From assembly GCA_965116925.1 (NCBI GenBank), contig OZ220744.1, positions 5,472,001 to 5,536,000 of the forward strand: a stretch of DNA of 64,000 bases. The letters are read 5' to 3'. Of the stretch, positions 34,278 to 43,586 are shown in pieces (the stretch's first letter is position 1; the number at the start of each line of letters is the position of its first letter). Source of the DNA: Candidatus Poribacteria bacterium. Lineage in GTDB: Bacteria > Poribacteria > WGA-4E > PCPOR2b. Made by a program: the position numbers and the translations under genes. The notes beneath the pieces were generated by a model that made no database searches, was not told where the DNA came from, and worked only from the letters and a program-made list of their open reading frames with translations.

Positions 34278-34402
34278 TCCGTGCCTATCTTCGCCTCCTG
34301 TCCCGACGGGTCAGGATCCCGAGAATCGGGACAAGCATATCCGGTGCGGTTACATGAAGTTTAAGTATTTAAATCGGTAATCCCTATTTTCCTCGAAACA
34401 TA

Positions 34403-34489
34403 CGGTAGGCGCGGTTTTCAACCGCGCCGGCGTCGCTAGCAAATGACCGAACTGTTTTTTTTATTTTCATCAAACCGCACCTACCGGGG
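34403..34489. repeat. Inverted pair of GTAGG(C/T)GCGG REP units (REPIN-like)
   Basis: GTAGGCGCGGTTTTCAACCGCGCC and inverted AAACCGCACCTAC. The 18-mer at 34472-34489 is identical to 15965-15982 inside the MITE. Confidence 0.7.
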
Positions 34490-34505
34490 TGGAGGGAATC
34501 AGGTT

Positions 34506-34544
34506 AAATAAAAAAGCACCGGGCAAATAATATCACCCGGTGCT
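34506..34544 (-). terminator. Rho-independent terminator of the RRM gene
   Basis: Minus strand GCACCGGG-loop-CCCGGTGC followed by TTTTTTATTT. Confidence 0.8.
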
Positions 34545-34574
34545 CTGTGTGAAATTATGAAGCAAAGATAGTGC

Positions 34575-34877
34575 TTACCATCTATCGCGGTCATCATCAT
34601 CGCGTCTGCCGCCACCACGCCTCTCACCACGTGGGGGCCGAGGCCGAGCCTCGTTTACCTTCACAGGACGTCCAACAATCTCCTGTCCATCCAATCCGCC
34701 GATCGCCGCTTCCGCCTCAGCCTGATCGGGCATTTCGACGAATCCAAATCCTCTTGACCTTCCACTATAATGGTCTCGAATGACGTTGGCAGTATCGACC
34801 GTTCCGTAGCTTTCAAAAGCCTCTCGCAAGTCATCATCCGTGGCATCATATGACAGATTACCGACGTAAATATTCAT
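34575..34877 (-). CDS. RRM (RNP-1) RNA-binding protein
   Basis: RNP2 IYVGNLS, RNP1 RGFGFVEM and an Arg/Gly-rich tail; SD GAGG. Confidence 0.95.
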   Translation of the reverse strand: MNIYVGNLSYDATDDDLREAFESYGTVDTANVIRDHYSGRSRGFGFVEMPDQAEAEAAIGGLDGQEIVGRPVKVNEARPRPPRGERRGGGRRDDDDRDRW

Positions 34878-34889
34878 CTGAATTTCCTC

Positions 34890-35458
34890 TCTGAAAAGAT
34901 GTTGTTCAAAATTTGCAAACGTTTCTGGACTTCGCACACGGAGGTTGGCTTCCCCCTCACCGACTATACATTCGAGTGATTCGCAGTTCATCGATGAATC
35001 GACACCGTGCCATCTTATAGCTTACCCCTTGATAGTATCACCACATTCCGTGTGTGCCCTCACCTCTCCCCGCATCGCGAGGATCGTGAAGCCGGGTATC
35101 TGTCAGATAACATCGCCGTCTCTGAGTTGTTATTGACGCCATTTCATTAAAAGTGACGTGATACCTTAAACGCTGTGAGATACGGCGTTATGGTCCCACA
35201 GAGAAACGCCATCGTGAGTGACTTTTGTTGAAGAAAAACGAGAACAGGAATTCAAGACCTCTCATGTCCTCCAATCGACTTTAACCGTTGCACCTAGCAA
35301 TTCGCAAAACAGCAGCGCATCGGTAGATGTTGCTCTGATGGCAGTCAAGCGGTATTGGTTGAGGAAATTCGTGCCAATTTCGACCTTGCCCCAACCCTTT
35401 GCTTATTTGCACAGTTACATATTTCTAGCCGCACCAAGCCTGCTCGACATCACTTCTC
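34890..35458 (-). ncRNA. Candidate large structured RNA / 5' leader upstream of the RRM gene
   Basis: About 580 nt without a credible ORF, downstream of a minus-strand TATAAT (35470-35465). Many helices whose G-U pairs only work on the minus strand. Confidence 0.45.
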
Positions 35459-35508
35459 AATAATATTATAAGCCAAGATAGCGTAAATATCCAGAAAAAC
35501 TTCTGACA

Positions 35509-36764
35509 TAGGGCAATCGCATATAAAAAAAATCTTGACAGTGTAGTGAATTGAGGTAATGTATAGGGTATCCCATAAAGCAAAGGAGTGTTTGAAATGT
35601 CTGATACCCCCATTACCTCGATTGAATCCCATTTTTCTGAGTTACCCGACCCCCGAACCGACACGCACCGCATTCGTCATAAACTAACGGATATGGTTGT
35701 GATAGCCATCAGTGCGGTTATCTGTGGTGCCGATAGCTGGGTGACGGTTGAATCGTTTGGACACGCGAAGTTTAAGTGGCTATCGGGTTTATTGAACTTA
35801 CCCAACGGTATCCCGTCGCATGATACCTTTAGTCGCGTGTTTGGTTTACTTGACTCGGTAGCCTTTGAGCACTGTTTCATCAATTGGATAAAACAGGTTA
35901 TCGAAGTGACAGATGGTCAAGTAGTTGCCGTTGATGGTAAATACCTGCGTCGGTCTTATGATACGGCGACCGACCCAAGTCCGATTGGCTTGGTCAGTGC
36001 ATGGGTATCGTCCCAATCGGTGACTTTGGGACAACTGAGAGTCGCTGACCATTCCAATGAAATCCCCGCCATTCCGCAATTACTGGAGATGTTAGCCATC
36101 TCCGGGTGTATTGTGACTACCGATGCGATGGGGTGTCACCCACGAATTGCTCAACAGATTGTGGATGCCGATGCCGATTATGTATTGGCATTGAAAGCGA
36201 ATCAAGGCCAACTCCATGAAGATGTCAAACTGTTGTTCGATGGCATTTTGGACAATCAGTTACCCGATGTGCAGACCGACACCACTCAGACCATTGATGG
36301 TGACCACGGTCGGATTGAGACCCGAACCGCTATCACTGTTTCTGACCCTGAAGTGATTGCACCATTGAGAGGCAGTGAGACCTTTGTCAATCTCAACTCA
36401 GTGGTCAAGGTCATCGCAGAACGGGAACAGAATGAAAAGACAACGGTGAAAACCCGATACTATATCTCCTCGTTATCGGCAGATGCTGTCCAATTGCTTG
36501 ACGCTATCCGCACCCATTGGTCTATTGAAAACTCATGCCATTGGGTGTTAGGTGTCGCATTTGATGAAGATGGCTGTCGTATCCGTAAAAACAATGGTAG
36601 TCAAAACTTTGCCATACTCCGACGCATTGCACTCAACTTACTCAAGGGAGAACCAACAGCCAAGGTTGGCGTTGCCGCCAAAAGGTTGAAAGCCGCATGG
36701 GACACCGACTACTTAACTACCGTGCTCGCTACCCTCTTCTAAAATCTTATATGCGATTGCCCTA
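35509..36764 (+). mobile_element. ISAs1-family insertion sequence
   Basis: Perfect 18-bp TIRs TAGGGCAATCGCATATAA (35509-35526 and 36747-36764); 10-bp target duplication ACTTCTGACA (35499-35508 and 36765-36774). Confidence 0.95.
35597..36742 (+). CDS. ISAs1-family DDE transposase
   Basis: PDPR, GIPSHDTF, VDGK, TTDAMGC, KANQ, HGRIETR and HWSIENSCHW motifs. Confidence 0.95.
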   Translation: MSDTPITSIESHFSELPDPRTDTHRIRHKLTDMVVIAISAVICGADSWVTVESFGHAKFKWLSGLLNLPNGIPSHDTFSRVFGLLDSVAFEHCFINWIKQVIEVTDGQVVAVDGKYLRRSYDTATDPSPIGLVSAWVSSQSVTLGQLRVADHSNEIPAIPQLLEMLAISGCIVTTDAMGCHPRIAQQIVDADADYVLALKANQGQLHEDVKLLFDGILDNQLPDVQTDTTQTIDGDHGRIETRTAITVSDPEVIAPLRGSETFVNLNSVVKVIAEREQNEKTTVKTRYYISSLSADAVQLLDAIRTHWSIENSCHWVLGVAFDEDGCRIRKNNGSQNFAILRRIALNLLKGEPTAKVGVAAKRLKAAWDTDYLTTVLATLF

Positions 36765-38141: not shown

Positions 38142-38447
38142 CTAGGTGGTGGTGTAAGGTTGAATCGCCTCTAGATTAGCAGTCTCTTTCTGACTGACAT
38201 GATACAGATCCCACCGGAATTGGAGGTTCATCCAGAAACTGGGCGACACCCCAAAGAATTTCGCCAAGCGGAGTGCGATACGGGGTGTTACTCCCCGGTG
38301 TTTATTCACAAGTTCATTAACACTCCGGTATGACACATGAATTGCCGTTGCCAGCTTCCGCTGACTGATATCCATTGGGCGCAGAAATTCCTCTAAAAGC
38401 ATTTCACCCGGATGGGTCGGAGGACGGTTAGTTGGCACACGAATCAT
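38142..38447 (-). CDS. higA: HigA/VapI family antitoxin (HTH)
   Basis: PTHPGEML.EEFL.P and ALRLAKFFG.SP.FWMNLQ motifs. Confidence 0.92.
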   Translation of the reverse strand: MIRVPTNRPPTHPGEMLLEEFLRPMDISQRKLATAIHVSYRSVNELVNKHRGVTPRIALRLAKFFGVSPSFWMNLQFRWDLYHVSQKETANLEAIQPYTTT

Positions 38448-38469
38448 TTTGTTTCTCCCTGATACAGGT

Positions 38470-38763
38470 TTAGTGATAATCCACAATTTCAACTTCAACT
38501 GGTCCGGTATCTGTCCACACAAAGCAAACATGGTATTGGTTATTGATTCGGATACTATATTGTTCAGCTCGATTGCCTTTCAAAGCCTCAAGTCGGTTAC
38601 CCGGTGGTATCCGAAGTTCGCCAAGTGAAATAACAGAATCAAGCTGGTCAAGCTTTCTGCTAGCAATCCGCCACAAAGTTCTAGGGCATGTTCTGTTAGC
38701 ATTTCTTGTATGGTTACCGTTAAAAATATCTTCGGTGCCTCTATTTTTAAATGATTGTATCAT
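38470..38763 (-). CDS. higB: HigB (RelE-like) toxin
   Basis: MIQSFK...TEDIF, PPGNRLEALKG, YSIRIN and EIVDYH motifs; located upstream of higA. Confidence 0.92.
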   Translation of the reverse strand: MIQSFKNRGTEDIFNGNHTRNANRTCPRTLWRIASRKLDQLDSVISLGELRIPPGNRLEALKGNRAEQYSIRINNQYHVCFVWTDTGPVEVEIVDYH

Positions 38764-38957
38764 GGCAGCGATATTTTTTAGCACCGTATTCTATAATTTT
38801 GCTCTCGAATGCTGTCAAAAAATGGGACTATTTTATCAGACGTTTTTCATGATTTTGAGTTTATCATTTTCTAAAATGGGCGAGCAGCAGGCATGATTTC
38901 CCCTCCTAAATCGCTACGAAATTTTGGAAATATCTTAAAAGAGAAGGAGCAAGATCA

Positions 38958-40150: not shown

Positions 40151-41060
40151 TATAGTAGATTTAACAATTAACGAAACATATTGATAATATCCTCAATGGG
40201 GTTATCCGCATTGTATGACCGGAGCCGTTTTATATTTGCAAACTTGTGTTCAACGGGATTATAATCCGGCGAATACGGGGGCAAGTATAACAACGATGCA
40301 CCCCAAGCTTGTATCAATGCTTGGGTCTCAGTGGTCTTGTGAATCCGTGCATTATCCATTATCACGAGACTGTTGGCATCTAAATGTGGTGATAACTCTT
40401 CATCGAGCCATGTATTAAACCTTTGTGCATTACAACTGCCCGATAGTAACTTTGGGGCAATCAACTTATTATTCAGTTGCGCCACTATCAAAGTAGTAGT
40501 CCGGGTCTTTTGGCTGGGTATCAACCCATGGACACATTGCCCCCGGGGGGCATAGCCATAACTTCTAAAGGTTTCATCTGTAAAACCGGTCTCGTCGAGG
40601 TAAATCAGCGTTTTGCCTGATGCTTTTGCTCCTGCGAGTTGCTCCTGATAGGCTTGTCGTTTTTCTGGACATTGCTCCTTATATCCAAACGTTTTTTTTT
40701 CCGCGTGTAGCCGAGTCTTTTGAGTCCATAGCCGACACAGGCCGGTGAAACCCCAAAGTGTTGAGCGCGTTCTTTAAGGGTTTGGTCAGGGTGTACCTTG
40801 ACATGTTCAGCTAGTGCCGTTGGGTCAAGCAGTCTCGGTTTTGTGGGACCCGGTTTGCCCGGTGTGAGTGGGTCTGGGTCATTGAGCCATCGGTAAATCG
40901 CAGTTCGACCGACTTTGAACCGTTTTGCCGCTTCTGTTTTACTGCCACCATTTTCTATGAATTGAAGCACGCGGGTGCGTAAATCTGATGAATGTGCCAT
41001 AATACAAATAGGATAACATACTTCTGAAAAAATGTCCCTTTATTTCTTGGGTTTACTATA
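40151..41060 (-). mobile_element. IS630-family insertion sequence
   Basis: TA-flanked imperfect TIRs (TATAGTAGATTTAACAATTAA / TATAGTAAACCCAAGAAATAA) enclosing a two-ORF transposase. Confidence 0.92.
40168..41000 (-). CDS. IS630 transposase, OrfA+OrfB joined by a -1 frameshift at an A9 run
   Basis: HTH OrfA (MAHSSDLR...). After a shift at 40692-40700 the frame reads TFGYKE...YLDETGF...MDNARIH...YSPDYNPVEH (DDE triad). Confidence 0.9.
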
Positions 41061-41696: not shown

Positions 41697-43586
41697 CTAA
41701 TATTTCAGGATGGTTCCCCATTCACCAACGACCCAGAGAACGCCGTCAGGAGATCGGGTGATGTCGATTAAGCCGTTTGAGGTTGGAGTTTGCTGAACGA
41801 GCCATGTCACACCGCTATCTTTGGTATTGAGGAGCATTCCCTTTTCTCCGACTGCCCAGCCCTCGTTCTCCGTAGCGAAATAGATGCCATTCAACTTTTC
41901 AGCCGTCGGTGTAATTTGCCGGATCCACGTCTCTCCGCCATCCTTTGTCGCATAAATGGAACCGTCATCCCCAGCAATCCACGCGATTTTGGGGGTAAGA
42001 GCGAAAATTGCCCGTAGCTGGTTGGGCCCCGCCTGCTGCGCGCCCCATGTTTCCCCACCATCACCGGTTTTAATAATTACCCCTGCGTCACCAACTATCC
42101 ATCCCACATTCGCATCGACAAAATAGACACCGTTCAGGTTGCTGTAGCTAGCAGTCATATCCCCGGAATCTTGGCTTTGCCATGTACGTCCACCATCTTT
42201 TGTGCGCAAAATCTTGCCAAGTTCGCCGACACCCCATCCGTGTTGCGGTGTTGAAAAGTGGAGATCATAAAAGCCAACGGCACGCTTCCATCGAATCGCC
42301 TCGTCAAATTGGATGCGTTGGATTTGACCGGTCTCCGCCTCCACACTGATACCACCCCATGTTCTGCCGCCATCCCCCGTCTCGATCAGGGTTGCGTTAC
42401 TGCCAACGATGTAGCCTTGCATCGCGTCAACAAAACCGATGCCGAACAGTTCAAAGACATTCCCGGTATGCTGTTGTTGCCATGTTGTTCCGCCATCACG
42501 GGTAGCAAGTGCCATCCCAGATAGTCCAACCGCCCATCCCGTCTTGTCGTCAAGGAAGTGGACTGTTGTCAAGTGGCTGTTGATTGAGACCACATCCCAC
42601 GATGCACCGCCATCTTGACTGTGCAAGAGGGTTGCAAATTCGCCCACCGCCCACGCCTCTTGCGGACTGACTAGTTGGATAGCGTTCAAACGGCTGGGAA
42701 CGGGTCTCGGTTCGAGTGGAGCCCAATTCGTGCCGCCGTCGGTTGTCCTCAGAATCACGCCGAACTCTGCGGCTGCGAGTCCGTGATTGGTATCAATAAA
42801 ATGGATACCCCAGATAGGTTCTGGCATACCGTTGGAATTGGGGACATTGCTTTCTTGGGTTTCCCACGTTGCGCCGCCGTCAGCGGTATGAATCAGCGCA
42901 CCGTTACCGCCGGCTGCCCACCCTTCTTGGCTATTGAGCATACAGATTGAACTGATGCCGGCTGCGGAGTTGATTTTTTGGCTCTTCCAGGTCTGTCCAC
43001 TGTCTGTTGTATGGACAACTGTTCCGCCGTGCCCCGCAGCCCAACCGACCTTTTCGCTGGTAAAGTGCAAATCTTGAATCGCATTATTCGTCGGAGGATC
43101 CTGTTGAACCCAAGTGTCACCGCCATCCGCTGTATGAATGATAAGTCCACCATCGCCACCAGCCCAGCCGTGTTGGGTATCCACAAAAAACACGGCTGAC
43201 AACGCACGACGTGTGCCGGTGTTCAGCACCGTCCACGTTTCTCCATTATCGGTGGTCTTCAATACGGCACCATCCTCACCGACGATCCAGCCGGTTTGGG
43301 GATTGAGGAAGCGTACCTTGTGGAAATCTATCCTGAACGGAAGAGGTTTGCTCGGTTGTTCCCAAGTTTTACCGCCGTCGTTGGTACGCAGAATTGTTGC
43401 GTCTGACCCGACGATCCACCCATCCTGTTGAGAAACGAAGTGGATATCGGAAAACCCCGCTTGCCATCGAGATTCACGAACAAGCGTCCAGGTCTTGTCT
43501 GCTGCAAAGACGTTGGTTGATAGGAGAGATAACAGTATTGCGAACCCCAGAGCGCGTCTGGTATGCAACGGTATATTTTTCATCAT
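41697..43586 (-). CDS. Secreted YCF48-like / BNR (Asp-box) repeat beta-propeller protein
   Basis: Signal peptide and about 14 GW.VG..G.IL.T.DGG.TW repeats. Confidence 0.88.
   Translation of the reverse strand: MMKNIPLHTRRALGFAILLSLLSTNVFAADKTWTLVRESRWQAGFSDIHFVSQQDGWIVGSDATILRTNDGGKTWEQPSKPLPFRIDFHKVRFLNPQTGWIVGEDGAVLKTTDNGETWTVLNTGTRRALSAVFFVDTQHGWAGGDGGLIIHTADGGDTWVQQDPPTNNAIQDLHFTSEKVGWAAGHGGTVVHTTDSGQTWKSQKINSAAGISSICMLNSQEGWAAGGNGALIHTADGGATWETQESNVPNSNGMPEPIWGIHFIDTNHGLAAAEFGVILRTTDGGTNWAPLEPRPVPSRLNAIQLVSPQEAWAVGEFATLLHSQDGGASWDVVSINSHLTTVHFLDDKTGWAVGLSGMALATRDGGTTWQQQHTGNVFELFGIGFVDAMQGYIVGSNATLIETGDGGRTWGGISVEAETGQIQRIQFDEAIRWKRAVGFYDLHFSTPQHGWGVGELGKILRTKDGGRTWQSQDSGDMTASYSNLNGVYFVDANVGWIVGDAGVIIKTGDGGETWGAQQAGPNQLRAIFALTPKIAWIAGDDGSIYATKDGGETWIRQITPTAEKLNGIYFATENEGWAVGEKGMLLNTKDSGVTWLVQQTPTSNGLIDITRSPDGVLWVVGEWGTILKY

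Follow-up and report, generated by a model that had tools for sequence, protein, structure and literature searches.

We analysed a window of 64,000 nt (C1:5472001-5536000 of a single-contig genome of 6.47 Mb) and conclude, with a probability of about 0.72, that the ~580 nt preceding its RRM gene are the long 5' UTR of the RRM mRNA, lengthened by the broken FKBP gene of a former FKBP-RRM operon and bearing a small candidate leader motif. The leader is long because it still carries the remnant of the broken FKBP isomerase; it is of mixed origin and is not a new large ncRNA. The initial annotation had proposed a large ncRNA or a regulatory leader, and the second proposal stands in part: this is a long, probably transcribed 5' leader of the RRM gene with no Rfam match, and the support for structure is modest and confined to its first ~110 nt. 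The locus comprises the following features.

35588-36742: DDE transposase gene, upstream of the leader and just beyond the promoter
35493-35465, minus strand: sigma-70-type promoter, with a -35-like box at 35493-35488 and a -10 box at 35470-35465
35458, minus strand: putative transcription start, where RNA contigs end seven bases past the -10 box
35448-35344, minus strand: candidate 5' structured domain with three helices, P1, P2 and P3
35343-35061, minus strand: middle of the leader, non-coding and dispensable in several relatives
35060-34937, minus strand: pseudogene remnant of a SlyD/SlpA-type FKBP peptidyl-prolyl isomerase, N-terminal part (about codons 1-43)
34934-34878, minus strand: native RRM leader, with a Shine-Dalgarno-like sequence at 34891-34885
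34877-34575, minus strand: gene for an RRM RNA-binding protein of 100 aa that ends in a Gly/Arg/Asp tail (PF00076 and NF058537)
34546-34513, minus strand: intrinsic-terminator-like hairpin 3' of the RRM gene

The RRM gene product matches PF00076 with an E value of 8e-23 in a profile search and scores 113.8 bits against NF058537 (Rbp_regulator), for which the cut-off is 100. The native leader of the gene is found in all aligned genomes with a p-distance of 0.111. Upstream, the TATAAT reported at 35470-35465 and the weak -35 box 17 bp before it were confirmed; the promoter has 10 of 12 consensus matches and a spacer of 17 nt, and its -10 hexamer is conserved in every one of the 19 aligned genomes holding that part. 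In one genome (G008), an insertion of ~1.1 kb parts the promoter from the leader.

RNA contigs from three studies end close to the -10 box. Those of X6 and X7 (second study) differ from the window at one position and end at 35458, those of X1 and X2 (both from one study) end at 35449, where adapter follows, and at 35453, and that of X13 (third study) ends at 35449. X6 and X13 have no RNA contig cover past 35474, and a contig of X19, for which the kind of run is not on record, spans 35130-35582 and reaches beyond the inferred start. Single RNA contigs in X1 and X2 bridge 34471 to 35449 and 35453, respectively, and hence hold both the leader and the RRM ORF; being assembled contigs, the RNA data give neither strand, ends nor a single transcript, and X1 and X2 have cover in the adjacent multi-copy transposase region as well. 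Several of the RNA runs holding the stretch carry the label sponge metagenome, and two proteins encoded in the window belong to 90%-identity clusters with Candidatus Poribacteria as their named members. A sequence scan found no terminator before the RRM ORF. The contig ends give a weak hint of a start seven bases after the -10 box, and the leader is probably a long, transcribed 5' part upstream of the RRM gene. In the mechanism that we propose, the sigma-70 promoter would drive one message that begins at ~35458, includes the RRM gene and ends at the 34546-34513 hairpin, and RRM would be translated from its own ribosome site at 34891-34885, so that most of the leader would be passenger sequence.

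The DDE_Tnp_1 transposase gene belongs to an insertion sequence at 35510-36762 with terminal inverted repeats of ~17 bp and a 12-bp direct repeat. The element, which we take to be ISAs1-like, sits ~16 bp upstream of the -35 box and is missing at this site in the relatives displayed.

The earlier statement that no credible ORF lies between the promoter and the RRM start holds for intact frames, the longest stop-free stretch on the minus strand being 49 codons, and misses the pseudogene remnant hidden at about 35060-34937. The remnant has lost its start codon, its frame is broken and the rest of the gene is deleted. An intact 142-aa FKBP protein, P0001, aligns in tblastn with 35057-34950 of the window at 42% identity over 43 columns, with an E value of 4e-05 in a search space of 1.1 kb and of 0.45 genome-wide, and the same query hits the upstream regions of all 21 genomes. 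Extra DNA is present near the 3' end of the leader in 9 of the 21, and in G022 and G003 it is a near full-length FKBP isomerase gene interrupted by stops and frameshifts. Against PF00254 (FKBP_C), the G022 copy scores above the cut-off (E 3.3e-11); it is 88% identical to P0001 (87-89% over two segments). In G024, a genome of another genus, a C-terminal remnant (80% over 30 aa, E 1.4e-11) lies upstream of the RRM gene. The PF00254 profile by itself does not detect the window remnant, whose identity draws on synteny and on DNA homology to the G022 and G003 copies and would be weak taken in isolation. The remnant aligns with the N-terminus of a protein resembling those of SlyD/SlpA(FkpB)-type FKBP genes (PF00254); unlike such genes, the copies are disrupted by stops, frameshifts, a lost start or deletions in every genome of the genus where they are detected.

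We use SlyD as a descriptive label, since P0001 falls below the cut-offs of the two nearest NCBIfam equivalogs, PRK15095 and PRK10737. With P0001 as the query, no intact FKBP copy was found in 20 genomes of the genus, and metagenome and genome scans did not find the DNA of the intact ortholog. The genus seems to be without a SlyD-type isomerase, because the only PF00254 match in G000, G003, G009 and G015 is a frame of 438-440 aa that is probably trigger factor.

Intact FKBP genes adjoin an RRM gene in 5 of the 24 loci fetched with FKBP queries, in the order FKBP then RRM in L084, L085, L093 and L094 and reversed in L083. L093 and L094 are titled Dehalococcoidia and share the FKBP-RRM part of L084/L085; in the latter two (L084:833-2175 and L085:1967-3267) we noted an intact run of a CxxC-x17-CxxC zinc-ribbon protein (TIGR04272), FKBP and RRM. 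The ancestor probably had a two-gene FKBP-RRM operon, which we can only infer because four of the five intact neighbour pairs are near-identical to one another and distant (~50% identity). The ancestral message would have consisted of a leader of ~400 nt, FKBP and RRM; the FKBP gene would have been lost before the genus radiated and then trimmed by at least two independent deletions.

The comparison of relatives is consistent with such a history. Leader DNA was found in all 19 other genomes of the genus, in 1 of 9 further genomes of the family and in none of 72 from other families, with the RRM gene downstream in 21 of 21 genomes. The distance from the -10 box to the ATG ranges from 510 to 817 nt (19 of 21 genomes), and 8 of the 21 have large indels within the part homologous to the window: G001 has a 163-nt insertion (which also matches repeated DNA), G005 and G007 an 83-nt deletion, and G006 and G022 deletions of about 205 and 141 nt, part of the leader is replaced in G003 and G017 by foreign DNA that looks IS-like by eye, and G008 has the ~1.1-kb insertion behind the promoter. 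Decay of the FKBP gene, a surviving remnant, repeated indels and a conserved promoter are thus all observed across the genus. The middle of the leader is deleted or replaced in G003, G005, G006, G007, G017 and G022, interrupted in G001, and has a mean folding z of -0.3 to -0.4; within it, an 8-bp hairpin (35201-35194/35180-35173) is well kept, with five paired variant types and one broken.

Several other sources of the leader sequence were tried and rejected. A MITE or multicopy promoter-leader cassette does not fit the single match in G000 and the single model match per genome in 19 genomes. When the 5' 400 nt of three genomes were searched in all six frames against Pfam for another decayed gene, two hits came up, both below the cut-off and each in one genome only; blastx of the 5' parts of 19 genomes against 17,237 ORFs returned the repeat insertion of G001 and otherwise E values of 0.026 or worse, with no match to the zinc-ribbon gene lying before FKBP in L084/L085. 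None of 22 candidate uORF starts keeps start and length across 20 genomes. An in-frame fusion of the FKBP remnant with RRM (a 138-aa ORF from 34991) is open in 7 of 20 aligned genomes, and in others a stop lies just before the ATG. The deletion that sets the two in frame (34991-34575, minus strand) may cause gene callers to choose a wrong start.

Support for structure is concentrated at the 5' end, in a candidate domain of ~110 nt made of the following helices.

35448-35442/35350-35344, minus strand: P1, closing P2 and P3
35439-35435/35405-35401, minus strand: P2, inner hairpin
35396-35389/35364-35357, minus strand: P3, inner hairpin

When the first 120 nt were folded, P1 was present in the MFE structure of all 17 genomes, mostly round two inner hairpins. 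The per-genome z values range from -0.03 to -5.53, the window itself having -0.63, and their mean is -2.08 (-1.70 in antisense); the other four sense windows have means of -0.7 to +0.5 and six neutral simulations -1.1 to +0.4, so only the first of the five sense windows falls below -2. When pairing was scored on a structure derived solely from the window, P1 proved 100% paired, with six variant pair types and none broken (p=0.004, neutral simulation), and both-side changes affect 4 of the 5 pairs of P2, in separate lineages. Ten pairs with a double change were seen against 4.2 expected (p=0.010, tree-aware simulation, uncorrected and borderline after multiple testing), and the domain is the sole one of 16 sense windows with such an excess. 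Of 500 shuffles, one attained its covariation score, in a test that ignores kinship and that, by the tool's own remark, 5-25% of unstructured alignments pass.

The main challenge to this motif is that the leader may be a neutral relic throughout, its first 110 nt included, with 5' helices that are inverted repeats formed by chance and passed on from a single ancestor. The modest z of the window's own domain and the ease of passing the shuffle test agree with this, as do antisense (plus-strand) control windows that reach p values of 0.005-0.025, including 0.015 and 0.025, and the loss of the domain in G003 and G022 and its separation from the promoter in G008. So does its distribution: a search with a model of the domain returned a single copy from each of 19 genomes of the genus and no match from the 131 others searched (150 phylum genomes in all), and no homologs were found beside 26 outgroup RRM and FKBP loci, with 12.3 bits in G022. 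The unbroken variants of P1, the lineage-separate changes in P2 and a mean z beyond the range of the neutral simulations and the other sense windows speak against chance, and we consider a wholly neutral leader unlikely. Our assessment that the first ~110 nt are a selected structure is a little better than even. They probably fold as a three-helix domain under weak selection. By analogy to other leaders, the domain, which lies ~470 nt from the RRM ribosome site, may protect the mRNA or contribute to feedback, and most plausibly it would set mRNA stability or RRM-protein feedback, as proposed for rbp/csp leaders. A more far-reaching scenario, in which a dead gene was recruited into a regulatory RNA and the genus-specific three-helix 5' motif and a selected FKBP remnant together mediate RRM-protein feedback, is speculative and has a low probability.

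Across all pairs of 17 genomes (leaving out G006, G017 and G022), the p-distance was 0.174 for 35458-35058 and 0.115 for the remnant, compared with 0.332 at four-fold sites of three flanking genes and 0.201 at those of the RRM gene. Against other alignable intergenic regions, with medians of 0.20 (n=12) and 0.17 (n=19), the divergence of the 5' part (0.19) is ordinary, 4 of 12 and 10 of 19 controls being as conserved or more; none of 12 and 2 of 19 are at or below the divergence of the remnant. The low value of the remnant speaks against pure neutrality or passenger DNA, and could be due to recombination or to a hidden function.

The second of these explanations would have the FKBP remnant recruited to a control role, whether as an internal promoter, as a binding site for the RRM protein or as a site of translation control, and now kept by selection. 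Besides having the lowest divergence of the leader, the remnant is the part most consistently held, bins 35058-34979 being present in 20 of 20 aligned genomes and 5' bins in as few as 15-16; the genus alignment shows a TAnnnT hexamer near 35017, and such an element would keep RRM expressed where insertions cut the main promoter (G003, G008 and G017). However, the remnant gives no structural signal (z +0.5), it has small internal deletions in G006, G009, G010 and G012, and the hexamer has neither a -35 match nor a promoter-scan hit. The leader tree and the flanking-gene tree disagree, and the spread of one allele by recombination may therefore explain the low divergence. We regard co-option as improbable, at roughly one chance in ten. 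The remnant also contains a perfect 12-bp DNA palindrome (34988-34999) that probably predates the decay, because it lies in codons conserved in the intact protein.

For these comparisons, G003 was excluded from the leader alignment, as its 5' part is replaced, and the foreign part of G017 and 22 misaligned bases of G006 were masked in the simulations, the 5'-domain tests and the later window analyses. Alignments A1 and A2 hold 16 and 17 of the 21 genomes, respectively.

The remaining alternative, a single structured ncRNA or RNP scaffold of ~580 nt, was the leading idea of the initial annotation, and all arms of the nine helices listed there are indeed at the positions given. That the helices exceed chance was not confirmed: the MFE of the 591-nt region, set against shuffles, has a z of -0.31 for the minus strand and -0.14 for the plus strand. 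The G-U/A-C asymmetry of the stems, read earlier as selection on RNA, is likewise reproduced by shuffling and follows from strand composition (G 156 and C 120 on the minus strand), the MFE being -170 and -146 kcal/mol for the minus and plus strands and -168.5 and -144.6 kcal/mol for their shuffles. In 500 forward simulations of neutral drift starting from the window's own sequence, the 61 pairs of the listed helices were retained no better than expected (0.864 paired vs 0.838±0.031, p=0.20). H1 (p=0.004), H5 (0.014) and H6 (0.04) were retained better than neutral, H2, H2b, H3 and H4 no better, and H7 (57% paired vs 83% expected) and H8 (76% vs 83%) worse; H7 overlaps the old ribosome site and H8, the long-range helix, pairs FKBP codons with a deletion junction. 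All 62 possible sense helices of at least 7 bp together gave p=0.32 against neutral, and the best of them, H1, a family-wise p of 0.05, where an antisense (plus-strand) control helix reaches 0.005.

Presence in 19 of 19 genomes of the genus and in one other genus, RNA contig cover, divergence below that of four-fold sites, 14 of 16 overlapping sense windows with a kept-pair fraction above the null mean and a 12-bp long-range helix drawn by RNAalifold (16 genomes) would all suit a large ncRNA, but it is largely refuted and very unlikely, given the folding z, both-side change in 1 of 66 consensus pairs, the poor retention of H7 and H8, a long-range helix with one arm deleted in G022 and G006, a length that varies between 510 and 817 nt and a 3' part that is FKBP coding DNA. 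The earlier observation that hallmarks of tmRNA, RNase P, SRP and group II introns are lacking was borne out, with no Rfam hits and none from ARAGORN. The suggested cmscan against Rfam 15 gave no match at gathering score in the window, covariance models of OLE/ROOL/GOLLD, riboswitches and Chlorobi-RRM included, and up to an E value of 10 the only hit was one of 13.7 bits on the terminator, attributable to chance.

The 5' UTR reading places the locus among long leaders of small RNA-binding protein genes, and the comparison with csp/rbp leaders made at the outset was the right frame. The cyanobacterial rbpA1 gene has a cold-regulated long leader before a small RNA-binding protein. E. coli cspA also has a cold-regulated long leader (as cited in PMC13370968). 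The present leader resembles both in preceding a gene of that kind, and no sequence likeness to them was found. Closer are the Bacteroides rbpA/B/C genes, for which 5' UTRs of 122-155 nt are reported before single-RRM genes and, for rbpC, feedback regulation to which reporter data suggest that the UTR contributes (PMC13370968). The likeness extends to a long 5' UTR, a single-RRM gene and the same NCBIfam family, NF058537, whereas the leader here is ~580 nt long, holds a pseudogene and has its structured part ~470 nt from the ribosome site. The nearest named motif is the Chlorobi-RRM RNA motif (RF01697), which Weinberg et al. 2010 (PMC2864571) list as a candidate cis-regulatory structured RNA and which is named for RRM genes; the 5' domain differs from it in giving no match, whether at gathering score or with E values up to 10, in belonging to another phylum and in resting on much weaker evidence. 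In Poribacteria, PMC5087111 describes an RRM gene among the most transcribed in a single-cell genome and reports 47 times housekeeping level for an RRM gene in a transcriptome. Literature searches at the level of listings and abstracts found no description of the locus.

With the large-ncRNA candidate removed, the locus illustrates that the dead first gene of an operon, being conserved, transcribed and free of ORFs, can pass for one. It leaves a small leader motif, open to testing, on a gene family of which little is understood in bacteria, set in a clear stepwise series of gene decay across 20 species of a sponge-associated genus.

Other elements were noted in the window. Between the RRM terminator and a Gfo/Idh/MocA gene lies a REP-like palindromic repeat (34341-34490) with 107 blast hits in the genome, 100 of them of at least 50 nt. 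On the minus strand, two small adjoining ORFs at 38142-38784 resemble by eye a HigB/HigA toxin-antitoxin pair, a transposase split into two ORFs at 40168-41000 is IS630 family-like in appearance, and 41697-43586 encodes a 629-aa repeat protein with a YCF48/BNR beta-propeller-like look and a signal peptide.
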